Shown: positions 5,950 to 62,405 of the stretch, in pieces
Numbering within the stretch: the first letter of the stretch is position 1
Layout of the letters: each line of letters begins with the position of its first letter
Source: Candidatus Obscuribacterales bacterium
GTDB taxonomy: Bacteria > Cyanobacteriota > Vampirovibrionia > Obscuribacterales > Obscuribacteraceae
Length of the DNA: 64,000 nt
Direction of reading: 5' to 3'
NCBI GenBank assembly: GCA_031292355.1
Contig: JARLHI010000040.1
Span: 36,090 to 100,089 of the forward strand
The notes under the pieces: model-generated
The model's input: only the letters and a program-made list of their open reading frames with translations
Told to the model about the DNA's origin: nothing
Databases searched by the model: none
Position numbers and translations under genes: made by a program

Positions 5950-6183
5950 ATGGCTGACATTATTATCAATCCAGAAAAAACAGCCAGCACAGAAGCTGTG
6001 TCTCATTCTTTTTCGCCGGCTCAGAGCGAGGGTTACGCCAGTGGCGGTGCCTTCAAAATAGCTGAATCTACCGCCGCCACGCTTCCACTTTTTGTAATTT
6101 GTCCTGATGGCAACGTTGCAGGAACCGCTACCACTAAAGCAGAAATAATCAAGCTTAACGGACAGTGTCGCGAAAAGGGTTGA
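5950..6183 (+). CDS. small hypothetical protein
   Basis: ORF 5917..6183 with a plausible ATG at MADIIINPEK after GAGG. About 100 bp downstream of an occurrence of the conserved 12-mer. Confidence 0.3.
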   Translation: MADIIINPEKTASTEAVSHSFSPAQSEGYASGGAFKIAESTAATLPLFVICPDGNVAGTATTKAEIIKLNGQCREKG

Positions 6184-6184
6184 T

Positions 6185-38230: not shown

Positions 38231-38254
38231 TTTCGGTTAGAGGGACTCTGGCGC

Positions 38255-39340: not shown

Positions 39341-39416
39341 AGAAGCCTCTTGGTGTGAGAGAAATCTGGTAGAGGCAGGGTCAACGAATTGACACTGCGC
39401 TCCTCAGAGAAATAGA

Positions 39417-40925: not shown

Positions 40926-40959
40926 ATTTTTCTCTCCTGATTGTTTCGTTAAGAAGGGT

Positions 40960-41661
40960 TCAGTCCTGCTCGTGATAGACGATCAGAAAGAAATCACCGA
41001 TCTTGATGGCGTCACCATCTTTGAGTGCGACCGTTTGTCCTTTGGCGATTTCGACGCCGTTGACCTCCGTGAAGTTCTCGGTATCGCATTGCAGTTCATA
41101 GCCGCCGGCCGGTGTGCGATGAAAATAGCCATGCACGCGAGAGACGGTCTGGTCGCCCAGGATCGGGATAACCGGACTCATGCGACCGAACGGTACACGT
41201 ACGCCGCTCAGTGTGTAGCCCGTGCTCGGCACTGTGGGCGCCACCACATCATCAGGACGCAACGGACGCGGATCGAGATCCACGGAAACTTCGATGTAGC
41301 AGAGTTTGCAACTGGTGTTGCCAGCCGTGTTGTCTGCATTCGCCTGGGTGGAAGCGGCCGGCTGCGCGATTGCAGGCGCTTGCACTGCCGGTTGCGGTTC
41401 GGATGATGGCGCAAGCGCAGGTGTGTGCGTATCCGCATCGTCGACATGAACGACGGTGCTTGCTTGCACATTGGTGCTTGCGTCGTCAGTGGCAGGGTCG
41501 TGAACGCTTCCATCCGAATTTAATTGAACGATCGGGTCTGCGTCGCTGAAAGCATGTCCGCAGCCGCTCGAACAGAATAAGTCGTCCACCTCTGCGATCG
41601 TCTTGCAAACAGGGCAGATACGTCCCTGTTTGAGCGGAGACGAAGTCTCGTTGCTGGTCAT
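40960..41661 (-). CDS. zinc-ribbon + FHA-domain protein
   Basis: N-terminal CPVCK…FCSSGCGH. C-terminal FHA (…PFGRMSPVIPILGDQTVSRVHGYFHRT…NGVEIAKGQTVALKDGDAIKIGDFFLIVY). Start re-placed at MTSNE after GAGGAG. Confidence 0.75.
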   Translation of the reverse strand: MTSNETSSPLKQGRICPVCKTIAEVDDLFCSSGCGHAFSDADPIVQLNSDGSVHDPATDDASTNVQASTVVHVDDADTHTPALAPSSEPQPAVQAPAIAQPAASTQANADNTAGNTSCKLCYIEVSVDLDPRPLRPDDVVAPTVPSTGYTLSGVRVPFGRMSPVIPILGDQTVSRVHGYFHRTPAGGYELQCDTENFTEVNGVEIAKGQTVALKDGDAIKIGDFFLIVYHEQD

Positions 41662-41745
41662 AAAAAACTCCTCATTGGTCAAGGGGCAAGCGGACGAACA
41701 CTTGAGTGCTCGTCCGCTCATGCTGTCGCTTTTCGTAAGGAGTCC

Positions 41746-43131
41746 TTACGACTGAGTGGTGGTCGCAGCGGCGGCCGTGGTGTCGGCCGGAGCCGCCGTC
41801 GGTGCAGCGACTGCGCGCGTGCGACGAACGCTCGAACCGGCGTTGATCTTCATGCCGGTCGCGGCGTCCGTGTTCTTCAGCTTCACCTTGCCGGTTGCAG
41901 CGTCCAGAATCTCAACGAATTCCTTCAGCTGCTCAAGCAGATCGATGTCGCCGTCTTCATGCGCTGTCTTGACCAGATCGCCGAGAATATCGCTTGCGCC
42001 GCGGGTGTTGCCACCCTTGAGCAGATCGCCTGCTTCACGCATGCGGCGCTGCGAACCCTCGATGCCCTGAGCCACCTTGACGCCGCGGGTGACGCGCTGG
42101 CTGAGTGACGCTTCCTCCGAGTTGCGCGCCCACTGAGCCTTGATCGGGAACGGATCGCTCTTCACGAGCTGCCCGCCGACTTTGTATTCGAACCAGATTT
42201 TGGCTGCCATCACCGCTGGTGCGTTGCTCGGACGAGCGACTTCGAAAGCGAGGTAGAACAGACGCGTTTCGGCATCCCAGGAACCGAGGTTGACGCGGAT
42301 GAACTTCTCGCCTTCCTTGCTGCAGGCGTTTTCCAGGTCGAGGCTGACCGGGGAGCGCACGGCGATGTCCAGGATGTCGCCCATGTTGAACTTCTGGATC
42401 ACCATGGTCACCCCAGACAGAGCCTGACTGGCTGCCTGAGCTACCATGCCCTCGAAGTCGGCCTTGACTTCGGAAGGATTGGCGAGCACCACCGGCGGTG
42501 CCGAGCCGGTGCCGTCCGAGATCAAGCGCAGCTTGTCCATTTCCCAGTCGGTGCCGACGCCGCGAGCGAGGACTCGCAGAATCTGCCCCTGCTTGGCGAG
42601 ACCCTGGTAGGCAACGAGCTCTTCGCCGACTGAGACGCGATCACCGTAATCACCATCGGTGAGCAAGCCGGCGAAGCCTTCGGTCACTTTGCCGGCCTTT
42701 GCAAGAGCGCAGTAGTCCTCCCGGAAGAGCTGCAGACCGCCGGCTGTCTGGGTCGAACCCTCGAGCGCAGGCAGTTTCTGGCGCAGGGCGTGCTTGGCCG
42801 CCTCGATGTTCTGCGGCGTCGCGAGGGCCGGATGGAAGAGCCGGTGCTTGGACGAGCCGAAGAGGTAGACCGCGACGTAGTTCTGCGGCGACTTGAGCAT
42901 GGCGTCGAGGAAGGCGCACGCCCCTTCGACAGCCGCTTGAATCTTGGCGCCCTTCATGGAGACCGAGATATCCAGAATTACGGCCGCCAGACGCGGAGGC
43001 TGCACCGTCGCTGTGGCATCGAAGCCGACAGGGGTAACGAAGAAGGCGGCGTCCTGACGCGTGGCGTCGGCCTTCAGGATCTCGTTGATGTCGGTCTTGA
43101 TTTGCAGCGAGGGGGAGGCGATGTTTGACAT
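41746..43131 (-). CDS. von Willebrand factor type A (VWA) domain protein
   Basis: MIDAS motif AAVILDISVSM…, then YLFGS. Long C-terminal region. Start re-placed at MSNIASP after GGAG (the ORF track TTG start at 43218 is unlikely). Confidence 0.7.
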   Translation of the reverse strand: MSNIASPSLQIKTDINEILKADATRQDAAFFVTPVGFDATATVQPPRLAAVILDISVSMKGAKIQAAVEGACAFLDAMLKSPQNYVAVYLFGSSKHRLFHPALATPQNIEAAKHALRQKLPALEGSTQTAGGLQLFREDYCALAKAGKVTEGFAGLLTDGDYGDRVSVGEELVAYQGLAKQGQILRVLARGVGTDWEMDKLRLISDGTGSAPPVVLANPSEVKADFEGMVAQAASQALSGVTMVIQKFNMGDILDIAVRSPVSLDLENACSKEGEKFIRVNLGSWDAETRLFYLAFEVARPSNAPAVMAAKIWFEYKVGGQLVKSDPFPIKAQWARNSEEASLSQRVTRGVKVAQGIEGSQRRMREAGDLLKGGNTRGASDILGDLVKTAHEDGDIDLLEQLKEFVEILDAATGKVKLKNTDAATGMKINAGSSVRRTRAVAAPTAAPADTTAAAATTTQS

Positions 43132-43226
43132 ATTTGGCTCCATCAGTGTCATTGAGAATTGGTGATTGTCTGCAAGGAATTTGCAGACTCGATCACATTG
43201 GATACGCACGAAAGTCAAGCAGGCTT

Positions 43227-44399
43227 TTAAAAGTTGATCACAGCGATGGTGTTGTTGTCTGCACCACTTGCTCTTTTGAGGACAGCCTCGGCAAAGCCCA
43301 TGGCGCTCCTCGGATTGCTCGCAAATATCTTGGCGAACTCGCCGGACTGGGGTAAGTCCATATCATGGACGTCATTCCAGGCTCCGTCAGAACAGCCGAA
43401 GATAGACACAAGGGTTGAATCGATGGTCACAGTCGACGTCGACGGTGCATAGATCTCACCCTCAGGCACTTCACCAAGGCATTGCGTCATCGTATGCAAT
43501 TCCTTAGTAGTGAACTTCTTGTAGGCTTCTGCCGCAGAGACACCCGTCTGGTCAATCATCTCGTTGAGAAGGGTATGGTCGCGCGACAGCAGTTTGTCGG
43601 AGTAACCGCAACTCGCAGTCGAGTCACGATAGATGGCATAAAGGCGACTATCGCCGCACCACCCTAGAGACGCCACACCATCATCGATGAAGGCGACGAT
43701 GATGGTGCAAGCTGGAGCAGAGAAGTCAGCGTCGGCGTTGAGTTCGGCTGGGACTTTCAAAACCGCCGACTGGGCAGAATTGATAGCCGCAAGCACGAGT
43801 CCTTCACTGCCCTTCTGGCGACTGAGAGCAGCAATTCTCAGCGTTGCCGATGCGGCTCTGCACGCTTCTTCCGAGGCTTGTTGAGGAGCCTTAGAAGAAG
43901 AGACACCGTCTGCCACCACGAACCAGCTGATTCTCTTGCCGTCGACTACAACGGAGTCCATCGCCGCGTAATCTTCGTTGCGAGAATGGCCGATCGTGGG
44001 ATTGCCGAGATTGCTTCGTGCCACTATATTCGGTGTGACTTCGATGAAGAAGTCATCGCGACATGGTAGCACTGCTTGAACCCAGCACTTCGTGCAAAAG
44101 CCATCTTCATCGAAATTTGATGAATCGGCATTGCAGCCGACACACTTTGGCGCAATATAGTGACGGATGTTATCCGCCTCCTCTGGCACCTGGATGGCGA
44201 CTGCTGCCGCTTGCTCTGTTTTGGGCGGTTCGACTTCGACAATCGTCGCTGCCGCCGGAGTTGTCGTTGCCTTTTCGATCGAGCCGGCATCGTCTTGTGC
44301 CGAGTCGTATTCTTTGCCACACTTCGAGCAGAAAAGATCTCCTGGCTCACGCGTTGGACACGGGTCTCGTCGTGCATTGAGGTAAGGACAGGGCTCCAT
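43227..44399 (-). CDS. zinc-ribbon + PP2C-family Ser/Thr phosphatase
   Basis: N-terminal CPYLN…CPTRE…FCSKCGKEY. PP2C motifs GHSRNEDYAA, VVADGVSSS, GDSRLY, CSDGAW, DNNTIAVI. Confidence 0.75.
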   Translation of the reverse strand: MEPCPYLNARRDPCPTREPGDLFCSKCGKEYDSAQDDAGSIEKATTTPAAATIVEVEPPKTEQAAAVAIQVPEEADNIRHYIAPKCVGCNADSSNFDEDGFCTKCWVQAVLPCRDDFFIEVTPNIVARSNLGNPTIGHSRNEDYAAMDSVVVDGKRISWFVVADGVSSSKAPQQASEEACRAASATLRIAALSRQKGSEGLVLAAINSAQSAVLKVPAELNADADFSAPACTIIVAFIDDGVASLGWCGDSRLYAIYRDSTASCGYSDKLLSRDHTLLNEMIDQTGVSAAEAYKKFTTKELHTMTQCLGEVPEGEIYAPSTSTVTIDSTLVSIFGCSDGAWNDVHDMDLPQSGEFAKIFASNPRSAMGFAEAVLKRASGADNNTIAVINF

Positions 44400-44408
44400 T
44401 GATGCACC

Positions 44409-46712
44409 TCAAATGTATTTGAAGGGCCCTGCTTTGAGCGCCTCCGCGATGAGACTATTGCGTTCGTCTCCAGAGGTGTGACTGGCGCAGATGCTGAGAT
44501 GGAGATTTGCTGCGGTGCGAAGATCGTAGCTTTTGAGCTTGACGCCCATCAGTTTGATCTGAGCATCGGCTGCAACATCGCCGCTTTCGACGGCTCGTGT
44601 TCCCGCCAGATACAAATCAGCGGCCAGACGATGCCAGTCGAGATTGTCTTGCATGACACCGGCGATGATACCGGCGGCCGCAACCAATTCGTCTTTGCCT
44701 GGTTTGCTGCTCGGTAGCGTCTCGATGAGCACCCTTGCTGCCTGCATTTCAGCCGGCACGTGGGCGATCGAAGATGACGGTACTCGCTTAAGGGCTTTCA
44801 CCGCCGAAGCGCGATTGCCTTCAAGTGCCAGGCTGCGAGAGTGAACGAAGGCGGCCATGGCGAATCTGTCGGCATCGACCAATGTGACCAAGTCACAGCA
44901 GCCAATCGCTGTCGAGGTGTCGCCGACAAGCTCCGAAGCAAAGCCCAGAGCCAACTTGGCCGCGGGTTCGCCAGGCAGCTGGACGACGACCGAGCTGTAA
45001 AATTCCACAGCGCGATTGTGATCGCCCTTTGCCAGAGCCAGTAGACCGCGTAACCAAACGGTCTTCCAGTCATCCGGTTCAGACTCTGCCAGGGTGTTGA
45101 GAAGTCCTTCGGCTTCATTGTGTTCGTCGAGCTGGATCAGACAGTGAGCCAGACGAAAGCGTGCCTCGCGTGATTTCGGATGCTTGTCGGCGAGAGCCAC
45201 CAGGACGGGCTTCAACTCACTGGCTGCGGTTGCGGCTTTTAGAGCCGTCTCCACTTCTCCGCGAGCAGAATCGTCCATGTCGATTTTGAGACCAGGCAGC
45301 AAACGCCAGTTGGCTTCAGGCGAGCCGTTGCTGATGTCGCCGTCGAAGAACTCGGACTCGAGTGGCTTGGTCGCACCCGTATCGATTGCTACCACTTCTC
45401 TGAGAACGCCCCAGAGTTGTGCTTCGAATTCGGCTACGGATGAGAAGCGATCGAGCGGGTCGGGAGCCGTCGCGCGCCTGATGATTGCGGCATACGAAGG
45501 ATATTTGTCGAAGTTTTCGAGATCGTCTGGCAGCGAGTAGCGGTACATCTCTTCGAAGTCGAAGACGTTCGAAAGTACAGCCAGCACGCGTCCTAGCGAG
45601 TAGAGGTCCGACTGCTCCGACAGAATAAGGTCGACGCTTTCGTCATCGACTTCGCGCGGAGCATAGCCCTTGGTGGATGTGACATTCGGCATCAGGTTCG
45701 TAGCCAGAACGCAGCCACCGGCGTCGATCATCACCATGCGATTGCCGGTGACCATGAAGTTGCCTGGCTTGATGTCGGGGTTGAAAACCTTCGGCTTCTG
45801 CTCATGGAGGAAGCCGATGGACTGACACATGCCCAGAACATAGGCGATAGACTGCGCGACAGGTAGCGGTTCGTTGTTGTCTTCGTAGATCTGTTCGACC
45901 GTTTTTCCGTCGACCAGCTGCATGGCGATGAGCGGCTGATTCTGGTGGGTTTTGAAGCCGAAGATCTGCACCACCGACGGATGAGAAAGCTTAGCGAGCA
46001 TCTGCTTTTCGGCAATGGCCGCTTCGCGATCCATCTTGTTGTTGGTGATCACGCCCTTGACGATAGCCCAGCGTTCGACGTCGAGGTCCCAGCACAGGTA
46101 AATGTAGCCGCAACCTCCCTTGGCGATGGTGCCTTTCACTTCATATTGGTTGGCGACGATGGTGCCGGGCAACATCGCGTACGAATATGGTGAACCGCAT
46201 TTGGTGCAGACACCAGAATCCGCCAGGTTGCCGTCCTTGTCGCGACGGGTAAGAGGAACCCTCACACCGGGATGGCGCTTGCCGGTCGGATCATCGCAGA
46301 AGCGCTGCTCGACAGGCACATCCCACTTGGTCTTGATCAAGTGCAACGGATCTGTCTGCGGCACTTCGCTCACAGCGACAAAACCGCCGCCCAGGTTGCG
46401 TCGCTTTGAAGAGGAGGTTTGGCTGCTGGCACCGCCCAGACGCTTCTTGTTCAATAGCCCTTGGGCTTGTGCCGCCGGCTTGCCGATGAATCGTACGGAG
46501 CGCCTGGACGAACGCAGAGATGAGCCGCCGATTTTCGCGCTGCTGCGTGCCGAGTTCGTATTCTTCGCCACCGCTACCGCCACCGATGGCAGCAGCGTAA
46601 GGTCAACCATGGCGCCGCAGTCGTTGCAGAAGCCATCTGCGATGACACCGCCGCATTTGGCTCCATTGACTATCTGTTCACATATTGGCATGGCCATTAC
46701 TGATCTCTCCAT
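44409..46712 (-). CDS. zinc-ribbon + Ser/Thr protein kinase (non-RD type) + TPR-repeat C-terminal domain
   Basis: N-terminal CEQIVNGAKCGG…FCNDCGAM. Gly-loop AKGGCGYIY, VAIK-like AIVKG, catalytic loop NPDIKPGNFMV (HRD replaced by NPD), DAG in place of DFG, APE-like region. C-terminal TPR repeats. Confidence 0.75.
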   Translation of the reverse strand: MERSVMAMPICEQIVNGAKCGGVIADGFCNDCGAMVDLTLLPSVAVAVAKNTNSARSSAKIGGSSLRSSRRSVRFIGKPAAQAQGLLNKKRLGGASSQTSSSKRRNLGGGFVAVSEVPQTDPLHLIKTKWDVPVEQRFCDDPTGKRHPGVRVPLTRRDKDGNLADSGVCTKCGSPYSYAMLPGTIVANQYEVKGTIAKGGCGYIYLCWDLDVERWAIVKGVITNNKMDREAAIAEKQMLAKLSHPSVVQIFGFKTHQNQPLIAMQLVDGKTVEQIYEDNNEPLPVAQSIAYVLGMCQSIGFLHEQKPKVFNPDIKPGNFMVTGNRMVMIDAGGCVLATNLMPNVTSTKGYAPREVDDESVDLILSEQSDLYSLGRVLAVLSNVFDFEEMYRYSLPDDLENFDKYPSYAAIIRRATAPDPLDRFSSVAEFEAQLWGVLREVVAIDTGATKPLESEFFDGDISNGSPEANWRLLPGLKIDMDDSARGEVETALKAATAASELKPVLVALADKHPKSREARFRLAHCLIQLDEHNEAEGLLNTLAESEPDDWKTVWLRGLLALAKGDHNRAVEFYSSVVVQLPGEPAAKLALGFASELVGDTSTAIGCCDLVTLVDADRFAMAAFVHSRSLALEGNRASAVKALKRVPSSSIAHVPAEMQAARVLIETLPSSKPGKDELVAAAGIIAGVMQDNLDWHRLAADLYLAGTRAVESGDVAADAQIKLMGVKLKSYDLRTAANLHLSICASHTSGDERNSLIAEALKAGPFKYI

Positions 46713-46824
46713 TAAGGTTTGATGGACTGAATTCCAGGCAGGGTCTCAACCGGACCCTACCAGGCTAGACTTGAGCCCTCATCGGGTTTTCATTGAGACT
46801 GACCTGGAAATCAGAGCGAAAATT

Positions 46825-47865
46825 TCAGGTTTTGCTGCCGGCGTCGGCTTCGAGCCGCGCGAGCATCTCCTGGAATTTCTGCACCGCGTCCTCGGCCGCC
46901 TTCACATCGCACGGGCGCTTGCGAGCGAGCGTGAGAACGAGAGCCGCCTGACTGTTCAGCGCTTCGTTTCCACCTTCGCCGGCAAATTTGCCGCGCTCGG
47001 CTGCCCGATACAAGGTGGAAAAGAATCCCTCCACAGACTCGGGCTGAGCGGCCTGTTTGTTCTTGGCCTTGAGCGTCTTCTGACGTTCCTCCAGCAGTGC
47101 CTGGGCAGTGGAGAACCACGAATATACAGTGAGAGCCGCCTGCGGGAAATTGTTCTCGTCTGCCGCCATTTGTGCGGTGGTGAGTGTCGTCGCCAGGGCG
47201 CCTATCGCATCCTTTTGATCGACATTTTCGGCCGCCGCGCCGAGAACGATGGAAACCAGCTTGACCTGCGTCGCAACGACCCTGGTGTTGATCTTCTCGA
47301 GATCGCTGAGGAGCGTCGTGGCGTCGGCGAGCTTGTTGCGGACCGAAGTTTCGTCGGTCGAGAAAGAATCGACGGCAGTGCTTGCGGCGATGATGAGTGC
47401 CTCGAGATTCGTAGCTTCGGCCGAAACGTCGGCGTTGGGATTGGTCTTGAGGGCATCGCGGATGGTGTCAACCGCCTTGGCGCAGGCGGCGACTTCTGGT
47501 AGCTCGAGAGCGCCCTTGGCTGAGGCGATTTCTTGAACGCTCGCGAAGGTAGCGAGCTTGACGGCGAGCTGAGGAGGCATGCCGTTCGCGGCCTCGCGTA
47601 AGCTTGCTACAACGCTGGACAAATCACCGAGAGCGGCGGTGCCGGTTGTTTTCGCGCGGGCGATGATGGCATCGAGTTGAGCGAGCGCCTGTGCGCGTGC
47701 CTGCGGGTCGGTCATCGAGCGAGCTTTGTTCAAAGCGGCAGTGACGCCCGGTTCCACGGCAGTCCAGGCTTCGCGGGCGGCTGTGCTAGCTGTGCGTGCA
47801 TACTGACCGGCCTTGTGAGCAGCGCCAAGAAGGGTCTCGAAGATATCGGAAGACGACATTCGCAT
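46825..47865 (-). CDS. Ala-rich all-helical hypothetical protein, first gene of the kinase operon
   Basis: 346 aa, predicted helical and Ala-rich. 112-nt gap to the kinase gene on the same strand. Confidence 0.5.
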   Translation of the reverse strand: MRMSSSDIFETLLGAAHKAGQYARTASTAAREAWTAVEPGVTAALNKARSMTDPQARAQALAQLDAIIARAKTTGTAALGDLSSVVASLREAANGMPPQLAVKLATFASVQEIASAKGALELPEVAACAKAVDTIRDALKTNPNADVSAEATNLEALIIAASTAVDSFSTDETSVRNKLADATTLLSDLEKINTRVVATQVKLVSIVLGAAAENVDQKDAIGALATTLTTAQMAADENNFPQAALTVYSWFSTAQALLEERQKTLKAKNKQAAQPESVEGFFSTLYRAAERGKFAGEGGNEALNSQAALVLTLARKRPCDVKAAEDAVQKFQEMLARLEADAGSKT

Positions 47866-53055: not shown

Positions 53056-53517
53056 TTTTCTCTCCATTTGTTTTTGAAGGTGCACAAGTACACACCATGC
53101 AACTTACATGGTCGAGTCGAGTTTTGATTGCGATGGTGTTTAGGACTGCTGCCCAATGAAAATCTCATTCATCGCTAGGCTGCAGAAAAGCGCTGAGGCG
53201 CCCGAGTTTGATTTAAAAGAAAGATGCATTGAATGGCTTGTGGCTAACTAGAACTCCAGAAAAAAGAAATGAGACGATATGCCTCAATCCTAATAACGTC
53301 CTTGTGTCAGCTCAAGCTATTTTGCCTCGAAGAGAGCAAGAACAAGTTTAAATTGACTCTTTTACTTGAAAACCACTTTTACTAGCCAAACTGGATCGCT
53401 TCCGGTATCAACTTTTGGCCAGAAGAGAATCCTCAAGAAAAACGCGGAGGAAAACGTGGAGGAAGGCATGGTGCAGTTGTGCAATAATTGCCATCCATAA
53501 AAGCGGTCCCATTGCTC

Positions 53518-54933
53518 ATGATACCGATCATTCTTTCTGATGATGCGAATATTGCTCTCTACAAACGCATTGCGTCAGCTGTGGAGGAAGGAATTAGCCA
53601 GGCGAAACTCAGCTCTGGAACCAAAATGCCTTCCAGCAGAGAGCTTGCGGAATCTTTAAGTGTATCTCGCGGCAGCGTTGTCAGAGCCTACGAGGAGTTG
53701 ATTCACAGCGGTCACCTTTTTGCGCGGGCTGGAGGCCAAACTTTCGTTGCCGAAAAGTCCAGTCATAAGCAGACTCTGTCGAACGGTGATAGTGCGGAAG
53801 ACGACTCTGAGCAGAATCCAGAAAATGTGAGCGAGTTCGCTAAACGCTTGTCGAAATTCAGTTGGTCCTTAGGTTCTGCAGCAGACATGCCATTGTTGAA
53901 TTATGGTGCACCACCTGAATGGGCCTTACCTGTTTCTAAATGGAAATATGCTCTAAATAAAACGTGCGCTGATCTTAGTCCAGCTTCCATCGAATATGCT
54001 CCGCCACCTTTTGGTGATTTTTGGGTGCGAGAAGTGCTCTGTGAATTTCTTCGTCGGCGCAAGGGCGTTCTAGCCAATGTAGCGCAAACAATTGTCTTTG
54101 CGGATTCGGAGAGCAGTCTGGTCTATATAGCGCGTTTGCTCATAAACGTGGGTGATGTCGTTCTAGTGGAAAACCCGTGTCACGCTGGCGCTCGGGATAC
54201 ATTCCGCACACATGGTGCTCACGTGATAACGGTACCGATTGATGAAGATGGAATCAGAACAGACATCGTTGAAGAATATCTAAATAATGGTTCAGTGAAA
54301 TTGATTTATGTGTCTCCGTCCTTTCAAGACCCAGTCGGTGTCAATATGTCTTTAGCGCGCCGACAGCAGTTGTTGAAACTGGCAAATGCTCATAACGTCT
54401 GCATCGTGGAAGATGCATGGGATAGCGACTATTCTTACATCAGCCCTAATTTTCCACCGCTTTTCACGCTTAGCCAAAATTCAAATGTTTTTTTCATTTA
54501 CAGCTTTTGGAAGCTGCTGTATCCGCTTTCTATGGTTGGTTGTTTGTTAATACCGCCTCGGTACGCGGCAACGTTTGCAGCAGCAAAAGTGCAATCGAAT
54601 AGCATCAACCCTGTGATTGAGCATCGCACTCTTGCTGATTTCATCGAAAGCGGCAACCTAGAAAAACACATAAAGCTGACACGAAAGCAATTAACCATCA
54701 AGCGACAGACCATGATTGCTTTGCTTGTTGCTCTTTTCGGCAAAGATGTGCAAATAAGAAAACGTAGCTCAGCCTTCTGGCTCGTAGTGGAATTTAGTGA
54801 AGAGTTGACGCAAGGAGATATTGAAAGGATGGCGGCGGACAACAATATTGTCTTGTTCTCGACAGACTGCTACTACTTAGATCCGCGTAAAATTCCCGCT
54901 CGCGAATACATGGTTCCTTTCGCTGATTACTAA
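53518..54933 (+). CDS. MocR/GabR-type regulator (GntR HTH fused to class I aminotransferase-like domain)
   Basis: N-terminal winged HTH (…KMPSSRELAESLSVSRGSVVRAYEEL…), then a ~350-aa PLP-fold domain. Start ATG at 53518 or 53488. Confidence 0.7.
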   Translation: MIPIILSDDANIALYKRIASAVEEGISQAKLSSGTKMPSSRELAESLSVSRGSVVRAYEELIHSGHLFARAGGQTFVAEKSSHKQTLSNGDSAEDDSEQNPENVSEFAKRLSKFSWSLGSAADMPLLNYGAPPEWALPVSKWKYALNKTCADLSPASIEYAPPPFGDFWVREVLCEFLRRRKGVLANVAQTIVFADSESSLVYIARLLINVGDVVLVENPCHAGARDTFRTHGAHVITVPIDEDGIRTDIVEEYLNNGSVKLIYVSPSFQDPVGVNMSLARRQQLLKLANAHNVCIVEDAWDSDYSYISPNFPPLFTLSQNSNVFFIYSFWKLLYPLSMVGCLLIPPRYAATFAAAKVQSNSINPVIEHRTLADFIESGNLEKHIKLTRKQLTIKRQTMIALLVALFGKDVQIRKRSSAFWLVVEFSEELTQGDIERMAADNNIVLFSTDCYYLDPRKIPAREYMVPFADY

Positions 54934-55609
54934 GCGCGTTCTAGCAGGTGCGATTCAAGTTTGCTCGGCGTCGTGCTCAAATATAAACAAAAGGTGATTC
55001 TTGAGCGTGAACTCCGCTAGCGCCTATCTTGGTAAATTGAGTCTCATTACCATTTGATACGCAAACTCGCAGGTATTAAGACGCAGCAAGACCAATTGCA
55101 TCTATATACGTTGGATTGCTTTAGACATCCTGAGACTGGTGGTTTTAAGTTCGCGATCGGTTGGAACTCCATTACTCATCAAGGTTTCGGAATTTCTCCA
55201 CGCAATGCTCGCATTGCTTTGTTAATGCCTTGCAACAAGCGCTTGGAATCATTTGTTTTATGGTTCACCTCCTTGTTACGGTCAGATGTCTTTCCATCCC
55301 CAAACCTTCTCTGAGTTTCCCCGCACAATAAACAGCTGCTTGTTCTACTGAAAATTCGCTCGATCCTCAAAGGGATGGTCGGTCTCGTGTGCGGTTTGTC
55401 TATCAGTGTCAATCAGCAGCTCCAGCCTTCAACCCCTAGCTAGCTGTTGTCACCGTAAGTGTCTGTAGCGCGTTCGTGCGGCTAGCGCTGATCTGTTTGT
55501 GTGTATCCAGTCTGGATTACTACGCACGAGCAGATGTTTGCTGACCGTTTTCCTTCTCATCTACTGCAAATCATCAACCGTGTTTGCAGCTTTCACCCGG
55601 AGGTTCAAT

Positions 55610-58585
55610 ATGGCTTCTTCGTTTGCCAGGCGTCTTCTTTTGCCGCTGATGGCCGTGTTCGCGATGCTCACCCTCTCACCCATGGCCGCTTATGCCGCCG
55701 CCAGTGTGTGGGTGCCCGACTTCAATTCCGGTCAGACCGTCTACGTCGACCCTGCTCTGAGCAATGATTCGCAGTATCCAGTGCGCCTGGATGGTCTCGA
55801 ATCGAAGCTTCAGGATGCGGGGCAAAAGGAAGGAGTGCACTACTTCTTCATTTACGAGAAGTCTGTGCCCGAGGCCCAGATTCCTCCGCAATACGGCAAG
55901 CAGTACGCCGAATGGCAGCTCGATGACGTCGCCAATCGCTGGGCCGGTAAGGCAGGATTCTCTTCGAAGGATTCGGTCGTGATTCTGCTGGTGCGTTCGG
56001 CGAAGAACCCCAACGCTTTCAGCTATGCTGCCGACTCGGGCAGTCAGTGGCAGCAGGCGGGGCTGACCAAGTCCTACTACACCAATGTCCTTGCGGGCAT
56101 CAAGAAGTCCTATCTGCCCGGCGACCCCTCGGGTTTCGCTCTGGCGGTCGCTCAGGACAGCTCGTCCCACATCGGCGCCGTGAACGCGCAGGTTGCTTCT
56201 GCGGCCGCTCACAAGGCCTTCGTCTCGCATCTGCCGCTCTACATCGGCATCTTCCTGGCACTTGCTCTCCTCGCCGGCTACAGCATCTTCATGCTGGTGC
56301 GGTTCGGCAAGGCCAAGAAGCTTCTCGCCGACCTGCTCGCCGACCTCCAGCCCAAGTTCGATTCCTTCAATCAAGTCAGCATGAAGATCCAGAATTCCTA
56401 TATGGGTTTTCTTTCTGACCAGCGCGGTTGGCAGGGCAAGCTCACGGGCGTGACGCAGAAGAAGTTTTCGGCTGCGGTCGCTTCCTATTCTGATCTGACG
56501 ATTCAACGTCAGGTGGCCCTCGACCTGCTCGCAGCCGGTCAGAAGGCTCTGGAATCTGCGTCCATGTTCAAGGTCGGCGCTCTCACGACCGCTTACGATA
56601 ACCTGACCTCGACTCCTGTCGTCATCACCGGCGACGAGATCGAGTTCAAGAAGATCACCGATGCTTTCGGCGGTCTGGTCTCCAAGAAGACGTTCACGCC
56701 CGAGCAGCTGTTCGCCAATTTGAACAGCCTGTTCACCACCAGCAACTCGCTCCTTTCGGAAATCTACGATGCTTTCGAGTCGGCCAACGCCAACAAGACT
56801 GCCATCGCCGATGCCCTCAAGGCGGCGTCTGAACTGCAGCCGGAAATCGAGGCGGTCGGCCTTTCGTTCGCCCCGTATTTGACGGCTTACAACGATCTCG
56901 TCGCTCGTGCAGGTACCACCGTCGCCGGCATCAGCTCCGACCCTGTCAGCGCCGTTTCTGGTTCCACCAGTCTGCGTTCTGACGCCGAGAAGTTGAAGGC
57001 CTCCATCCAACAGGCCGTCTCTTTGAAGAAGGACGTGTTGACGGTTTCGACCGCCATCGCGGATGCGCGCACTGAAATCGCTGCCAAACGTGCTGTGGCT
57101 GTCGATTTCACATTCGTTTCGTCGGCTGATCCTGCCACCTTCGCGTTCGCCGAAGAGGGGTACAACCCCGATACGGTGCTCGCACAGGCTGATGGTTCGC
57201 TGAAGTCGTTCAGCGATGCGCTTGGGGCTGGTCGGGTCGAGGAAGCGCAGTCCGCCAAGGCGGCGGCTCTTGCTTCGGTGACTGCGGCTCTGGCGCTCGT
57301 CGCGTCATCGCTTGCGGCAAAGAAGGCAGTAGAAGAGAAAGTGCCGGTTCTTTCGGCGACATTCTCCGACTATGCTGCTTTGTCCAAGGTGGGTGTCCTG
57401 TATAAGGCGCAGTCATTCGTTGGTGCGGCGGCTATCCTCTCTGCTCTCGAGTCGCTCACCGAACTCGAGAACAATGGGGCGATGCTGTCTGCTTCGGCTG
57501 CGAAGAACCCCAAGCTCTCGGATGTCACCTTGAGCAAGGTGACGACTCTGAGCGCGCGCATCGCAGATGTGGTTTCGGCGTACAAAGGACCGTCTTTCGA
57601 TGGTGCTCGGGCGCAGGCGCTGCATGACACGGTCGCTCAGGAGTTCGAGGGTGCACAAGACGCCATCGCAGCCGATGAAAAGGTGTTCAAGTCGGCCAGC
57701 GACGCCGTTGCTTCGTTCCGTGCGGCTTATAGCCAGGCGGTCAACGTCGTCAACGACTCACGTGTCGGCCAGCATCGTCGCGACTCGTTGAGCACTCTCA
57801 ACGGCACGCTCACTTCTTTGACCGCTGCGGTGCAGTTCACCGTCGGCGCTTCGAAGGATTGGTCGACGGTTGAAGCCGATGCCGTCGCCAGCAAGTCCCA
57901 GGTCGATTCGCTCAAGGCGGCTGCCCAGGGCGATATTGATGCGGCCGTCGCCGATGCTAAGGCGCTGGCCGAATTGCAGGACGCCGAGCGCGAGCTCGCG
58001 GGTTACGGCAGCCGTCGTTACGTGCGTACGATCAACAATTACAGCTTCGGCGGTAATGTGTTCTTCGATGCTTCGCGTCCGACGTCGCAACTGTCACTCG
58101 CCCAACAGTACTACCATGCGCGCAACTATTCGGCGATGCGTCAGGCTATCGCCGAGATGCAGGAGGAAGCCTATCAGGCTGACACCTATGCATGGTGGTT
58201 GACCATGGAGTTGATGTCCGAGAGCAACAATGTCATGGCCCAGCGCTATGCGTATGAGCTCGGCTACCGTCAAGGTGGCTACGATTCTTGGTATGGCAAT
58301 CATATCGGATCGGGCATCGACTACAACCAGCCCTGGGAGCCGACTCCGGACACCAACTGGGAGCCCTCGCATGAGAGCGCTCATCTGGACCCGGATTATG
58401 TCGAACCGGCTCAGGGGCACAGCCGTGACGACGACGATGACACCACGGGCAATGCCGGTGGAGGCACCGATCGTGGCTTTGGCGGCGGTGGCAACGACGA
58501 CGACAACAACAACGTCTCGGACGACCGTGACGACACACCTGCTGACACCGGCAATTCTGGCGGTGGCACTGACGACTCGTTCTAA
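55610..58585 (+). CDS. TPM-domain (TLP18.3/Psb32/MOLO-1 family) membrane protein with ~700-aa Ala-rich helical insertion and Gly/Asp-rich C-terminal tail
   Basis: Signal peptide (…MAAYAAASVW). The N-terminal ~170 aa align block-wise with the TPM domain of YgcG-like proteins. TM helix (LPLYIGIFLALALLAGYSIFMLV). C-terminal GNAGGGTDRGFGGGGNDDD…GNSGGGTDDSF mirrors the Gly-rich tails of TPM proteins. ATG after GGAGG (the ORF track GTG at 55499 is unlikely). Confidence 0.6.
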   Translation: MASSFARRLLLPLMAVFAMLTLSPMAAYAAASVWVPDFNSGQTVYVDPALSNDSQYPVRLDGLESKLQDAGQKEGVHYFFIYEKSVPEAQIPPQYGKQYAEWQLDDVANRWAGKAGFSSKDSVVILLVRSAKNPNAFSYAADSGSQWQQAGLTKSYYTNVLAGIKKSYLPGDPSGFALAVAQDSSSHIGAVNAQVASAAAHKAFVSHLPLYIGIFLALALLAGYSIFMLVRFGKAKKLLADLLADLQPKFDSFNQVSMKIQNSYMGFLSDQRGWQGKLTGVTQKKFSAAVASYSDLTIQRQVALDLLAAGQKALESASMFKVGALTTAYDNLTSTPVVITGDEIEFKKITDAFGGLVSKKTFTPEQLFANLNSLFTTSNSLLSEIYDAFESANANKTAIADALKAASELQPEIEAVGLSFAPYLTAYNDLVARAGTTVAGISSDPVSAVSGSTSLRSDAEKLKASIQQAVSLKKDVLTVSTAIADARTEIAAKRAVAVDFTFVSSADPATFAFAEEGYNPDTVLAQADGSLKSFSDALGAGRVEEAQSAKAAALASVTAALALVASSLAAKKAVEEKVPVLSATFSDYAALSKVGVLYKAQSFVGAAAILSALESLTELENNGAMLSASAAKNPKLSDVTLSKVTTLSARIADVVSAYKGPSFDGARAQALHDTVAQEFEGAQDAIAADEKVFKSASDAVASFRAAYSQAVNVVNDSRVGQHRRDSLSTLNGTLTSLTAAVQFTVGASKDWSTVEADAVASKSQVDSLKAAAQGDIDAAVADAKALAELQDAERELAGYGSRRYVRTINNYSFGGNVFFDASRPTSQLSLAQQYYHARNYSAMRQAIAEMQEEAYQADTYAWWLTMELMSESNNVMAQRYAYELGYRQGGYDSWYGNHIGSGIDYNQPWEPTPDTNWEPSHESAHLDPDYVEPAQGHSRDDDDDTTGNAGGGTDRGFGGGGNDDDNNNVSDDRDDTPADTGNSGGGTDDSF

Positions 58586-58734
58586 CAAATTCTGCAATCC
58601 GTCCTAAGCGGTGCAGTCAAGTTCCGTAGCAACTTGAATTTCGCGTATTGGAAAGTGCCAGGCCCGGCTGGCGCTTTCTTCACAGGTGTGTCACATGAGT
58701 GGTGCATCCTCAACTTTAGAACCAGGAGATCAAT

Positions 58735-59469
58735 ATGTCTGTTGTTATCGAAGTAGTTGGTGTCGTCGCCGTTGTCGGTGGTCTGGCCTACTGGCAGATC
58801 CCGGCTGTCCGTCAGCTTTTCCGCATCAACCGCGATAAAGTCATCGCGGCGAGCTCGACTCCTCTGGAGCGCATCACCGACAACGTCAATCAAGCCATCG
58901 CCAAGCTGCCGGCTCAGCGCGCGCTGGTCGCCCAGCAGATGACGGCGGCGCAGCGGGCTCAGACCAACGCCCAGAACAAGCGTGACGAGGTCGAGGATCT
59001 GTTCAAGCAGGTGAATGTGGCGATCGGCGCGAATGCCACCGCGGCGACCATCACCACGCTGAAGCAGCGCTGGCTGACGGCCAAGGGTGCAGTCGTCGAC
59101 CTGGACAAGGTGTCCGAGGAGGCGCACAAGAGTGCCGACGACGCGCAGGCCGAACTCGAGGATCTGCTCACGTTGATCCAGCAGAGCAAGGCCGGCGCCG
59201 AGAAGCTGAAGAGCGATGCCAACTTGACCGCGATTCTGCAGCAGTCGACCCAGTTCCGCACGCAGGTCAACGACCTGAAGTCGGGGCTCGGGGCGAATGC
59301 CGCCGATGTGCAGGAAGTGCAGGACGCGCTGTCGAATGCTCGCAACGCCAACGAACTCTCCAAGGGTTCGGCTGCCGATCGCGAGATGGCCGATATCGCC
59401 AAGAAGACCCAGGCAAGCGCCGCCGATGACGCCTTCGCCGCGGAGCTCGCCGCGCGCGCCGGCAAGTAA
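58735..59469 (+). CDS. PspA/IM30 (Vipp1/ESCRT-III-like) family protein, paralog 1, with N-terminal hydrophobic extension
   Basis: Helical heptad sequence aligns with PspA (LERITDNVNQAIAKLPAQRALVAQQMTAAQRAQ…). Extra N-terminal MSVVIEVVGVVAVVGGLAYW. ATG after CAGGAG. Confidence 0.6.
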   Translation: MSVVIEVVGVVAVVGGLAYWQIPAVRQLFRINRDKVIAASSTPLERITDNVNQAIAKLPAQRALVAQQMTAAQRAQTNAQNKRDEVEDLFKQVNVAIGANATAATITTLKQRWLTAKGAVVDLDKVSEEAHKSADDAQAELEDLLTLIQQSKAGAEKLKSDANLTAILQQSTQFRTQVNDLKSGLGANAADVQEVQDALSNARNANELSKGSAADREMADIAKKTQASAADDAFAAELAARAGK

Positions 59470-59492
59470 GCACCATAAGCGGTGCTTGGACA

Positions 59493-59531
59493 AGCAGTGA
59501 TCCTGCTTTAATGAGGTAAGCAAAACTTACC
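59493..59531 (+). repeat. conserved double-hairpin 3' element, copy 1
   Basis: AGCAG-TGATC-CTGCT and GGTAAG-CAAAA-CTTACC hairpins 7 nt apart. A nearly identical copy lies after paralog 2. Confidence 0.6.
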
Positions 59532-59540
59532 TATAGACTC

Positions 59541-59589
59541 ACCAGCTCGACAGAGCCACAAGCTTCGTCGGGCTGGTGTTGTTTTTCTG
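59541..59589 (+). terminator. rho-independent terminator after pspA paralog 1
   Basis: About 10-bp stem CCAGCTCGAC/GTCGGGCTGG (one mismatch), followed by TGTTGTTTTTCTG. Confidence 0.55.
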
Positions 59590-59680
59590 CGTTCCAACAG
59601 ACTGTTCCAACCCTCTTTCTCATCGCGGCAACTTCAGCTCAACCGAGTTGAAGAAATCGAACCATCATCAGGAGTTACAC

Positions 59681-60361
59681 ATGAGCCTCGCTTCTTCTTT
59701 CCTTCAGGCTTTCCGCATCAACGGCGAAAAGGTCGTCTCGCATGGCTCGACCCCGCTCGAGCGCATCGAAGACAACGTCAAGCAGGCCGAAGCTCACCTG
59801 CCGCAGCAGCGTGCGCTGGTCGCCCAGGAGATGACGGCCGCGCAACGTGCGTCCACGAATGCGGATAACAAGCGTGCCGAAGTCGAATCGCTGTTCAAGG
59901 AAGTGCAGACTGCGATGTCCGCCTCGGCATCAGCCGCCACCGTCACCACGCTGAAGCAGCGCTGGCTGACGGCCAAGGGCGAGGTCGAAGCGCTCGACAA
60001 GATCGCTCTCGATGCCCATACGGCCGCCGACGAAGCGCAGCATGACCTCGAAGGGCTGCTCTCGTTGATCCAGCAGAGCGAACAGGGCGCCCAGAAGCTC
60101 AAGGACGACGCCAATCTGGCCGAGACCCTGAAGCACTCGACCGAGCTGCGTCAGCAGGTCAACGACCTGAAGGCCGGCCTCGGTGCGAACGCCGCCGATG
60201 TCGCCGCCGTCGAAGACGGTCTGGCCAACGCGCGCAACGCTGCCGAACTCTCCAAGGGTTCGGCTGCCGACCGCGAGATGGCTGCCATTCACGAGAAGAC
60301 CCAGGCGAGCGCCGCCGACGATGCCTTCGCCGCGGAACTCGCCGCGCGCGCCGGCAAGTAA
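59681..60361 (+). CDS. PspA/IM30 family protein, paralog 2
   Basis: About 65% identical to paralog 1 over the helical core. Identical C-terminal KGSAADREMA…AADDAFAAELAARAGK. ATG after CAGGAG (ORF track start 59576 trimmed). Confidence 0.6.
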   Translation: MSLASSFLQAFRINGEKVVSHGSTPLERIEDNVKQAEAHLPQQRALVAQEMTAAQRASTNADNKRAEVESLFKEVQTAMSASASAATVTTLKQRWLTAKGEVEALDKIALDAHTAADEAQHDLEGLLSLIQQSEQGAQKLKDDANLAETLKHSTELRQQVNDLKAGLGANAADVAAVEDGLANARNAAELSKGSAADREMAAIHEKTQASAADDAFAAELAARAGK

Positions 60362-60426: not shown

Positions 60427-60560
60427 CGAAGTGGGCACCGGTCTGGTTGAGTCAAAAGCTTGATTTGACCGGTGTTCCTTTCAACTGAAGTTTTTTTGGG
60501 GTGTGTTGAATATTATCGTGTGCATGTTGCATGCGATATCTCAAACTGTGAGGTACTTAT

Positions 60561-61658
60561 ATGCTAGTTCAAATGGCTATCGGCGACGCTTACGGCGCCG
60601 GTTTCGAATACGCCAGTGCCGAATTCGTCCTGGCAAATCACAGGCTTACGATGTATGTGCAGCATCCCAAGCATAAGCTGGTGCCAGGCGTTTACACGGA
60701 CGACACTCAAATGTCGATCGCCAACGCTGAGGTCATTCTCGCCGGGATACTTTCTCGGGAAGCCTTCGCTCAAGCTTATGTCGATTGCTTCAAGCGCGAT
60801 CAACGCGAGGGCTATGCAAGTGGCTTCTACAACTTTCTGTGTAGCGTCAAGGACGGTGAGGAATTCTTGTCACTGATGAAGCCTATCAGCGACAAGAGCG
60901 GTAGTGCCATGAGGGCTTTGCCGTTTGGAATTTATCCCGACATAGAAGTTGTGATTGCTCTTGCTACTTTGCAGTCGACGATCACCCACAATAGTTTCCA
61001 CGGCATCAACGCGGCAGTGGCTGCTGCTTTGATGTCACACTATTTTCTCTATCAGCTTGGTCCCAAAAGCGAACTCGGTGCTTTCATCGAAAAGCACGTG
61101 CCGGGTACGTGGGCGGAACCATATACGATACCTGTCGCCCAAAAGGGCTGGATGTCCGTTCGTTCGGCCATCACGGCTATCATGGGCAACGATTCAATGA
61201 CTGAGATTTTGCGCGCCTCTGTTGCCGTTACGGGTGATGTGGATACGGTTGCCGCACTCGCTCTGGGGGCAGCGGCGGCTTGCAGCGAGGTCAAACAAGA
61301 CTTGCCCGAGTTCCTTGAAAGGGATCTGGAGAATGGCGCTTACGGGCGAGATTTTCTCGCTGACTTAGACGCCAAGTTGATGGCCAAAATGGCAGATCTC
61401 AAAGCCGAAAAAGCTGCGTCACAGCAAGTCGCAGTCAGCGGTCCGCGAATCCTCGTGGTGCAGTCGCCAGAACAGTGGACGGGAGCGATAAACAGTCAGT
61501 CGTTTCTGGAAATTCCGACTGCGCTGGATGTGCAGAAAGAAGAAAATGCCTGGTTTGCAGCTGGAGGTGATTCCAGTGGCAAATCTTTCGTCGAGCATTT
61601 GCTCGCTCTGGGCGCGACGCGGCTGACCGTCGAAGTCTGGAATATCAACTACCAATGA
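60561..61658 (+). CDS. ADP-ribosylglycohydrolase (ARH/DraG family) with ~85-aa C-terminal extension
   Basis: N-terminal GDAYGAGFEY and YTDDTQMS metal-site motifs of ARH. C-terminal ~85 aa not assignable. Confidence 0.7.
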   Translation: MLVQMAIGDAYGAGFEYASAEFVLANHRLTMYVQHPKHKLVPGVYTDDTQMSIANAEVILAGILSREAFAQAYVDCFKRDQREGYASGFYNFLCSVKDGEEFLSLMKPISDKSGSAMRALPFGIYPDIEVVIALATLQSTITHNSFHGINAAVAAALMSHYFLYQLGPKSELGAFIEKHVPGTWAEPYTIPVAQKGWMSVRSAITAIMGNDSMTEILRASVAVTGDVDTVAALALGAAAACSEVKQDLPEFLERDLENGAYGRDFLADLDAKLMAKMADLKAEKAASQQVAVSGPRILVVQSPEQWTGAINSQSFLEIPTALDVQKEENAWFAAGGDSSGKSFVEHLLALGATRLTVEVWNINYQ

Positions 61659-61742
61659 TTGAAGTGCAGGCACTCTCATCTCGTGAGTGCCTGCTAGTCA
61701 AATCATGTGCCTGCGTTATTTAACTAGCCGGAGTAATTGAGA

Positions 61743-62405
61743 ATGAATGAACTGCAATCGAGTTTCCAAGGATGGCCGTCTGCTGTCTGGGCTCTCGCTG
61801 TGATCGTTATTGCGGTCTTAGTCTATCGCTATGCAATCAGCACCGCCGCGCAGCGTTTTCAAGCCAAGGAAGCGAACGCGGTTCGCGAACAGGCACGGGA
61901 TGCCTTGCGTCGCGAGGATAGACTGAAGCAAGAAGAAAGAAGTGCGGCAACGACGGCTACAAATCAACAGCAAAGGCGCGCAGATGAAGCGCAAGAGCGG
62001 GAGGCTCGCGCTGCTCTACTGGCGGCTCTTAGAGAGGAAGCCAAGGCAGACGTTGCTGGCAACGCACGTTGCGCCGAGGAAACGAAAAGAATACTCGCTG
62101 AAGCCGATGTTTACCTTGTGAAAATCTGCCGCTACTATGTGGTGCGCGACGAAGAGATCGATGAAAACGACGAAGACCAGGAAGACCCGCAAATCAACCT
62201 GGGCAACATGAAGGGCGACATCTCCGACAGTTATGAAAGCGCTTTGACATATTTTGCACAAGCGCAAGAGTTCGTAGCTCAAGGTGTGTACCTCGCGGCG
62301 AAGTGGAAAGCTGAAAACTGCTTGCTGGAAGCTAGATACGCTGCCGACAGAATCGCCAATCTTGACTCTCGTGCATGGAACGAAATTCAGGCTGCGGTGC
62401 GCTGA
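61743..62405 (+). CDS. membrane-anchored coiled-coil protein, hypothetical
   Basis: One N-terminal TM (VWALAVIVIAVLVY), then a charged R/E/A-rich helical region. ATG at 61743 (ORF track TTG start at 61737). Confidence 0.5.
   Translation: MNELQSSFQGWPSAVWALAVIVIAVLVYRYAISTAAQRFQAKEANAVREQARDALRREDRLKQEERSAATTATNQQQRRADEAQEREARAALLAALREEAKADVAGNARCAEETKRILAEADVYLVKICRYYVVRDEEIDENDEDQEDPQINLGNMKGDISDSYESALTYFAQAQEFVAQGVYLAAKWKAENCLLEARYAADRIANLDSRAWNEIQAAVR

Follow-up and report, generated by a model that had tools for sequence, protein, structure and literature searches.

A large bitopic membrane protein and remote PspA/IM30-like proteins encoded as a conserved gene pair in Obscuribacterales

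Three consecutive genes in a metagenome-assembled genome (MAG) of Candidatus Obscuribacterales (contig JARLHI010000040.1) raise the question of whether proteins of the PspA/IM30 type and a very large membrane protein form a functional unit in this lineage. Open reading frame (ORF) analysis shows that the genes lie on the same strand (plus) and fill positions 55610 to 60361 of the 64,000-nucleotide stretch of DNA analysed here, hereafter the window. An initial reading of the bare sequence (the original prediction) had described them as a gene for a TPM-domain membrane protein followed by two tandem PspA/IM30 paralogues. All three genes were found where predicted, the large product measuring 991 amino acids (aa). 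Profile comparisons place the small proteins in the PspA/IM30 superfamily as true but strongly diverged relatives, recognizable through deep profile methods only, and the order of large and small genes is conserved among lineages. The genes are as follows:

55610-58585, plus strand: large gene, 991-aa bitopic membrane protein (P4L53_09390; ORF with full-length homologues)
58735-59469, plus strand: small-1, 244-aa protein, predicted to be membrane-anchored and PspA/IM30-like (P4L53_09395; AGGAG upstream)
59681-60361, plus strand: small-2, 226-aa paralogue without the transmembrane (TM) helix (P4L53_09400; ATG behind AGGAG)

The three products are identical in sequence to the NCBI entries bearing these identifiers. 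The large ORF spans 55499-58585, with the ATG at 55610 giving the 991-aa product; the start residue of small-2 matches the starts of its homologues. The two small proteins are paralogues, as anticipated, and share 70% identity over 200 aa instead of the ~65% first estimated. A TM-grade N-terminus is present in small-1 only (maximum 19-residue hydropathy 2.14, against 0.52 in small-2), the TM helix occupying aa 1-23. Members of the small family are typically about 245 aa long: a TM helix at the N-terminus precedes a conserved FRQxxRI segment, and the proteins also have a long helical stretch and the motif ELSKGSxxDRE. To judge from the family's sequences, the TM helix is ancestral and was lost by small-2 and by its orthologues at loci L001, L002 and L010. 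Thus, the hydrophobic N-terminus that the original prediction saw in small-1 is real, but it is the ancestral state and not an extension.

The family is small and taxonomically narrow. A word-indexed search of 5.8 billion proteins returned 10 members, and an exhaustive profile search over 1.84 billion proteins returned 53 cluster representatives. Such a low number implies that HMMER with the small-family profile does not reach canonical PspA, since thousands of matches would otherwise be expected. Members are annotated as hypothetical, EzrA, SMC-like or FlaC, and all named carriers are Obscuribacterales, Obscuribacter or Melainabacteria.

To characterize the relationship with PspA, a profile built from an alignment of 42 small-family sequences was compared with solved structures and with a reference alignment of eight sequences (E. 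coli PspA, Synechocystis Vipp1 and six plasmid-borne PspA/IM30 proteins from five phyla). Single-sequence searches of the PDB with the window proteins were empty. When the family hidden Markov model (HMM) was run against 177,635 PDB sequences, Nostoc Vipp1/PspA took ranks 1 to 4 (E 5.6e-7) with a full-length, colinear match in which profile positions 23-237 align with Vipp1 5-216; Synechocystis Vipp1 came next (E 1.8e-4). Having cyanobacterial Vipp1 proteins as the best solved relatives accords with the position of the host lineage as sister to the cyanobacteria. Comparison of the small family with the PspA/Vipp1 alignment in hhalign yielded a probability of 95.9% (E 5.9e-9) over 219 colinear columns, placing family residues 21-244 on PspA 3-223. 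Reversed controls scored about 3% and column-shuffled ones 0.1%, while circularly shifted controls still recovered the cognate segments. As a further control, the comparably Ala-rich helical part of the large protein gave 2% against PspA.

Structure prediction produced a concordant picture. The AlphaFold2 (AF2) model of small-2, computed from a 10-sequence alignment, contains a predicted helical hairpin (H25-80/H85-164) with a predicted local distance difference test score (pLDDT) of ~90, and this would correspond to the long alpha1/alpha2-3 hairpin of the ESCRT-III core fold. The top six PDB matches obtained with the model in Foldseek are Vipp1/PspA structures (E 3e-3 to 1.4e-2), and residues 1-144 of E. 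coli PspA superpose on the predicted fold at 2.5 Å over 129 residues. The FRQxxRI segment aligns with PspA helix alpha0; in most members the TM helix precedes it, and small-2 begins at the alpha0 equivalent. Altogether, the PspA/IM30 label holds as remote homology detected by profile-level methods, and fails as a curated assignment, neither window protein having a PspA_IM30 match above the cut-off in Pfam or NCBIfam.

The second line of evidence is the company that the small genes keep. The sizes of the encoded proteins (in aa) at loci where both genes could be measured are given below.

Window: large 991; small 244, 226
JGI contig XhXod0LS: large 1002; small 246, 226
L003: large 1000; small 246
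L022: large 1038; small 250, 250
L024: large 1007 (cut at contig end); small 242
Contig _uPJ3euR: large 1030; small 242
L025: large 999; small 252, 261, 252
L026: large 965; small 256, 256
L027: large 1069; small 246

A homologue of 965-1069 aa is encoded immediately 5' of the small gene or genes at L003, L022, L024, L025, L026, L027, XhXod0LS and _uPJ3euR, and truncated copies of the large gene lie upstream at L010, L012, L021 and L023; the cut upstream ORFs of L006-L008 and L028 were not compared with the large protein. About ten metagenomic or MAG lineages, independent of one another, show the large-small order, an arrangement far beyond chance that is kept even for the most distant small-family member (profile E 4.7e-4). 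Flanking genes vary between lineages, which singles out the large-small pair as the conserved unit. Scans for the locus found none in genome collections and one in metagenomes. The neighbourhood survey thus bears out the proposal that large and small genes belong together: pairing is conserved in all lineages checked but one Obscuribacter subfamily.

The large protein shows the architecture originally described when its sequence and hydropathy are followed from end to end:

55610-55696, plus strand: signal-peptide-like N-terminus, aa 1-29, putative cleavage at AYA/A (hydropathy; kept in homologues)
55697-56209, plus strand: extracytoplasmic N-domain, aa 30-200 (~170 aa), of TPM-like layout, unconfirmed
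56216-56302, plus strand: single TM helix, aa ~203-231, followed by RFGKAKK (hydropathy 1.6-2.5 at windows 202-215)
56303-57409, plus strand: best-conserved cytoplasmic region, aa 232-600 (alignments A7 and A9)
57410-58306, plus strand: further Ala-rich helical region, aa 601-899 (composition; aligned family-wide)
58307-58582, plus strand: Asp/Gly-rich low-complexity tail ending in ...GGGTDDSF (composition)

The hydrophobic signal-like segment covers residues 8-28, with its hydropathy peak at residues 8-13, and the TM helix aligns in all homologues. By the positive-inside rule, the N-domain would be periplasmic and the remainder of the protein cytoplasmic. Residues 232-860 contain 18% Ala; in the tail, from residue 900 onward, Asp makes up 22% and Gly 17%. 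Six of seven homologues likewise have a Gly-rich tail whose last residue is F or Y, the L024 protein ending in T. Six large proteins (alignment A7) align end to end with 28-35% identity, and the L027 protein is also clearly homologous. The ~700-aa helical region, initially viewed as a giant insert, is kept over its full length across the family and is not peculiar to the window gene. Its juxtamembrane portion carries the conserved motifs GYLGFLSDQxGW, ITGDEI, FGG and GNPD; this conserved core (aa 232-600) has no relative in the PDB or NCBIfam. Hidden PspA-like units were considered for the helical region and rejected, hhalign giving 2% against PspA and 18% against the small family. A word-indexed homologue search with the large protein returned only itself, low-complexity matches having apparently flooded the candidates, and scans of all module proteins against Pfam, NCBIfam, PADLOC and PHROGs revealed nothing specific.

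The TPM assignment of the outer domain fared less well. The full-length large protein has no TPM match at E<0.1 in these four collections. With the N-domain of the window protein isolated, the best Pfam match is TPM_phosphatase (E 0.009), whose 16.4 bits stay below the 22.1 cut-off, and the match is absent from the six other homologues. Profiles made from two, six or seven N-domain sequences were aligned by hhalign with five TPM sequences (YgcG, BA41, BA42, 2KW7 and 7TBR), giving probabilities of 0.9-3.7% (3.7%, 3.3% and 0.9%); these scores are barely above those of reversed or shuffled controls, with the alignment nonetheless in the expected register. N-domain profile searches of the PDB gave no match, and a TPM HMM run over 1447 local ORFs did not rank the large proteins. 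The single-sequence AF2 model of the N-domain has a pLDDT of 36 and is unusable, which renders a Foldseek search on it meaningless; its matches, led by a mycobacterial supercomplex subunit (E 0.12), were disregarded. What the large protein does possess is a TPM-type architecture, made of a signal peptide, a domain, a TM helix and a Gly-rich tail. In sum, the TPM label drew a single sub-threshold Pfam match in one of seven homologues, hhalign values of 1-4% and a model of pLDDT 36.

We envisage that the large and small genes specify an Obscuribacterales-specific, two-part membrane-stress or membrane-maintenance module, a reading to which we assign a probability of roughly 60%. One part would consist of one to three tandem copies of a ~245-aa PspA-like protein, tethered to the inner membrane by the TM helix that precedes the alpha0 equivalent. 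The other would be the ~1000-aa bitopic protein, with a ~170-aa outer domain (possibly TPM-like), a TM helix, a ~750-aa helical cytoplasmic region and a Gly-rich tail. Its cytoplasmic region could serve as a membrane receptor or scaffold, nucleating or restraining polymerization of the PspA-like protein on the cytoplasmic face, and its outer domain might report the state of the envelope as a sensor. In the lineage of the window, loss of the anchor in the second copy would leave one tethered and one soluble subunit, which could co-assemble. A parallel exists in B. subtilis, where the TPM-type membrane protein YdjH anchors PspA. Gene structure, paralogy, remote PspA homology, conserved adjacency and taxonomic restriction are observations made here; topology, physical interaction, polymerization and the role in stress are inferred.

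Several findings weigh against this interpretation. Neither small-1 nor small-2 has a PspA_IM30 match at E<0.1 in Pfam, NCBIfam, PADLOC or PHROGs, so that plain profile searches, whose failure the original prediction had itself named as refuting it, fail for PspA as they do for TPM. The PspA_IM30 Pfam model matches two of the 42 family members (best E 5e-5), with generic coiled-coil families performing similarly, and the HMMER match to Vipp1 includes a large composition bias term. One Obscuribacter subfamily (L029 and L030) has the small gene without the large partner. Among the Pfam-called neighbours at the loci there is no band-7/SPFH, PspB/C, PspF or LiaIF-type partner. Finally, the TPM label of the outer domain is a reasonable guess from architecture, as yet unproven.

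A first alternative is that the small proteins are generic membrane-anchored coiled-coil proteins, for instance EzrA-like division or cytoskeletal scaffolds, which resemble PspA through helical-hairpin composition; the module would then be a structural scaffold with no role in membrane repair. The names given by JGI pipelines ('EzrA', 'chromosome segregation ATPase', 'FlaC') lean in this direction, as do the Pfam EzrA matches of four among the 42 members (best E 6.6e-7) and the weak matches of many coiled-coil families. However, the EzrA match is internal (profile positions 343-478 of 557) and not colinear, reaches 26.6 bits against a cut-off of 39.6, and sets a 245-aa protein against the 557-position EzrA profile (PF06160); membership in the EzrA family was rejected. 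In contrast, the match to PspA is full-length and colinear and survives the reversed and shuffled controls, Vipp1 comes first in the PDB, and the comparably helical region of the large protein fails to match PspA. We therefore consider a generic scaffold improbable.

The PspA-like reading also receives some colour from the tandem copies. In three lineages the copies encode identical proteins (L022, 10001-11789; L025, 10001-12998; L026, 8942-10771). Their nucleotide sequences show no difference in 753 nt in L022, four to seven differences in L025 and 14 in L026, all of them synonymous. The copies are separated and flanked by mostly unrelated DNA, the repeat of L022 alone extending ~130 nt beyond the stop codon. 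Synonymous differences and unrelated flanks exclude an assembly artefact in L025 and L026. These patterns suggest that gene conversion has acted on the coding region only, or that purifying selection is very strong.

Module genes are also distinguished by the G+C content at third codon positions (GC3), which ranges from 0.77 to 0.95 in small genes and from 0.66 to 0.90 in the large gene, most neighbours lying at 0.4-0.7. In five lineages (window, L003, L022, L025 and L026) no neighbouring gene exceeds the small genes in GC3; the low-GC locus L027 shows no raised GC3 in the module genes. Recent horizontal transfer as the reason for the module's high G+C was considered and rejected: a relative has the same flanks (CYTH, M20 peptidase and DapD-type genes) and GC3 is raised in four other lineages, both of which make codon bias the likelier cause. 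The bias looks expression-linked. Identical copies and high GC3 would fit an abundant, stoichiometrically demanding structural protein.

The genes surrounding the module offer a different perspective on what might trigger and control it. Downstream of small-2 in the window are the following:

60561-61658, plus strand: ADP-ribosylglycohydrolase gene, possibly accessory (Pfam PF03747, E 1.2e-27)
61737-62405, plus strand: protein of 222 aa combining a TM helix at the N-terminus with a coiled coil rich in charged residues (weak TolA-like match)

The ADP-ribosylglycohydrolase gene is found downstream only in close relatives (window and L001). The 222-aa protein is a lineage-specific neighbour with a 62% identical homologue in L001; considered as a further PspA-like paralogue, it was rejected, being unrelated to PspA or to the small family. 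At L027, the gene for a Phage_30_3 protein with a weaker NADAR match (6064-6531) precedes the large gene by 29 bp. Four lineages have a standalone homologue of the M17 aminopeptidase N-domain (L003, 5215-5877; L022, 4807-5481; L025, 4472-5125; L026, 1401-1979). The fold of the M17 N-domain is classed with macro domains in SCOP. If the M17-N proteins are indeed macro-like, all three flanking gene types, though unrelated to one another, would have to do with ADP-ribose processing. Neighbours of the ADP-ribose-hydrolase type (ARH, NADAR-like, M17-N/macro-like) hint that reversible ADP-ribosylation might control the module.

A separate observation concerns a ~180-aa protein with a C-terminal CxxC motif, encoded after the small gene at L003 (11000-11551), L023 (4013-4552) and L028 (2121-2678), with 31-42% identity. 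The L003 copy has no NCBIfam match, no Pfam match is recorded for the protein, and the window lacks the gene.

In the Obscuribacter subfamily devoid of the large partner (Ca. Obscuribacter sp., L029 and L030, 1637-18089), the small gene resides inside a Ter-type cluster with TerB, TerC, three TerD, a vWA-like gene, PRTase_2/TRSP, HAD, StiP/PELOTA, a C-C bond lyase and two ATPgrasp_Ter genes. It lies behind the gene for a 415-aa soluble helical protein, which weakly matches the juxtamembrane core of the large protein (hhalign 19.8%, E 1.2e-3, from a single sequence; reversed control 0.4%). This match hints that the cytoplasmic core, and not the outer domain, may be what works with the PspA-like protein.

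These neighbourhoods make room for a second alternative, in which the module belongs to a broader response to toxic ions or phage (Ter-like), or to one controlled by ADP-ribosylation, the PspA-like protein acting as membrane effector and the large protein as sensor. This scenario overlaps with the membrane-maintenance module proposed above, differing from it in trigger and control. It draws on the subfamily embedded among TerB/TerC/TerD and PRTase/ATP-grasp/PELOTA genes beside the 415-aa protein, and on the three recurring neighbour types (ADP-ribosylglycohydrolase, Phage_30_3/NADAR-like and M17-N-like). However, none of the neighbour types is universal, the link from M17-N to macro domains is one of SCOP classification, the 415-aa match has 19.8% probability from one sequence, and none of the module's proteins is recognized by PADLOC as a known defence protein. 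We regard this alternative, too, as unlikely.

Turning back to the proposed membrane-maintenance module, two expression signals were identified:

55599-55603, plus strand: ribosome-binding site of the large gene, GGAGG (read from the sequence, 6 nt before the ATG)
60443-60472, plus strand: terminator-like hairpin after small-2 (13-pair stem; weak call)

Alignment of the upstream regions of five loci revealed CTGGAGG as the sole conserved element. The two gaps within the module, from the large gene to small-1 and from there to small-2, measure 149-211 bp, and neither contains a called terminator-like site; the number of such sites overall is not above shuffled expectation. The promoter scan of the window found no sigma-70-like sites, including in the stretch upstream of the large gene, and an Rfam scan and the upstream-region alignment found no conserved RNA or leader. 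With this layout, a third alternative, in which the large protein works on its own as a periplasmic phosphatase or assembly factor of the TPM type and its adjacency is syntenic without functional coupling, may appeal to TPM_phosphatase being the sole (weak) Pfam lead and to gaps long enough for separate promoters, but is very hard to sustain given that adjacency and order are kept among lineages whose proteins are 23-35% identical and whose other flanks all change, that no terminator-like site separates the genes, and that the TPM signal is missing in six of seven homologues.

Upstream of the large gene, 0.7-1.7 kb contain no called gene (window, 54934-55609; L003, 5878-6862; L022, 5482-6708; L025, 5126-6793; L026, 5106-5771), and these stretches have no detectable common sequence besides the ribosome-binding site. 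In the window, a gene for a MocR-type regulator (GntR helix-turn-helix fused to an aminotransferase-like domain; 53488-54933) adjoins this stretch on the same strand; it is not found at the corresponding position in the related JGI contig. Further away, on the minus strand (36206-47865), lies a G+C-rich operon for a Ser/Thr kinase of the PknG type that bears rubredoxin and TPR domains, a PP2C phosphatase, vWA-C-containing, FHA and PBP-like proteins and several products without matches. The kinase/phosphatase/vWA set recalls the 'TerY-P triad'; no link between this operon and the module was shown.

PspA/Vipp1 proteins are the bacterial ESCRT-III, and both their recruitment to membranes and the control of their polymerization are active questions. 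The module looks like a known sort of system, PspA with a dedicated membrane partner, in a lineage-specific form and not like a new category. The small family also shows that an entire branch of the superfamily, specific to one lineage, escapes curated HMMs. More tentatively, and with the odds leaning the other way, the small family may represent an unrecognised, Obscuribacterales-restricted branch of PspA/Vipp1/ESCRT-III that is membrane-integral, occurs in tandem protein-identical copies and has an obligate ~1000-aa TM partner, for whose conserved cytoplasmic core no relative is detected. If so, a family from the non-photosynthetic sister group of cyanobacteria could inform on the diversification of Vipp1-type membrane biogenesis factors. 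A natural TM-tethered variant, paired in one lineage with an untethered paralogue, would make a useful comparative system; together with its giant bitopic partner, present in nearly every lineage, it could help to separate membrane targeting from polymerization and to define what a PspA 'receptor' needs. Practical impact would be modest unless the function of the partner or the hint of ADP-ribosylation holds.

How the module compares with known systems can be considered part by part. With PspA/IM30/Vipp1/LiaH (PF04012), the small family shares the ~220-aa helical core, seen as a full-length colinear profile match, and apparently the alpha0-like segment, the long alpha1/alpha2-3 hairpin and the C-terminal helices that follow. 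Unlike canonical PspA, it has an N-terminal TM helix and the family-specific ELSKGSxxDRE motif; more than 98% of known PspA homologues are a bare PspA_IM30 domain (PMC11237479). With the TPM proteins (PF04536; YgcG, Bizionia BA41 and plant TLP18.3/Psb32), the order of secondary structures in the outer domain seems to agree, as read from a low-confidence model. YgcG and BA41 also share the layout of the large protein (signal peptide, ~150-aa outer domain, TM helix, Gly-rich tail), their tails ending in an aromatic residue as in the large protein (GGGGASGRW in YgcG, GGGASGGW in BA41). Unlike them, the large protein has ~700 extra cytoplasmic residues separating the TM helix from the tail. As for Ter stress clusters, the small protein of one Obscuribacter subfamily is encoded within one, whereas in the 64 kb examined here no Ter genes accompany the window module.

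The closest counterpart is the B. subtilis pspA-ydjGHI operon. The original prediction expressed doubt as to whether a TPM-PspA linkage had been described; it is in fact published, including a TPM partner carrying a long coiled coil (Ravi et al. 2024, PMC11237479), and in B. subtilis YdjH is an interaction partner of PspA, which needs it for recruitment to the membrane and for membrane foci (Scholz et al., PMC8581546). Both systems set a PspA-type gene next to that of a bitopic membrane partner, and the ends of YdjG and YdjH (...MGGGF and ...SRGSF, as deduced from published reverse primers; PMC8581546) resemble the ...GGGTDDSF terminus of the large protein. In contrast to pspA-ydjGHI, the gene order is reversed here, with the partner first; there is no SPFH/band-7 (YdjI) or YdjG-like gene among the Pfam-called neighbours; the partner is ~1000 aa long with an outer domain that is not demonstrably TPM; and the PspA-like protein appears to be membrane-anchored in its own right and is often tandemly multiplied.

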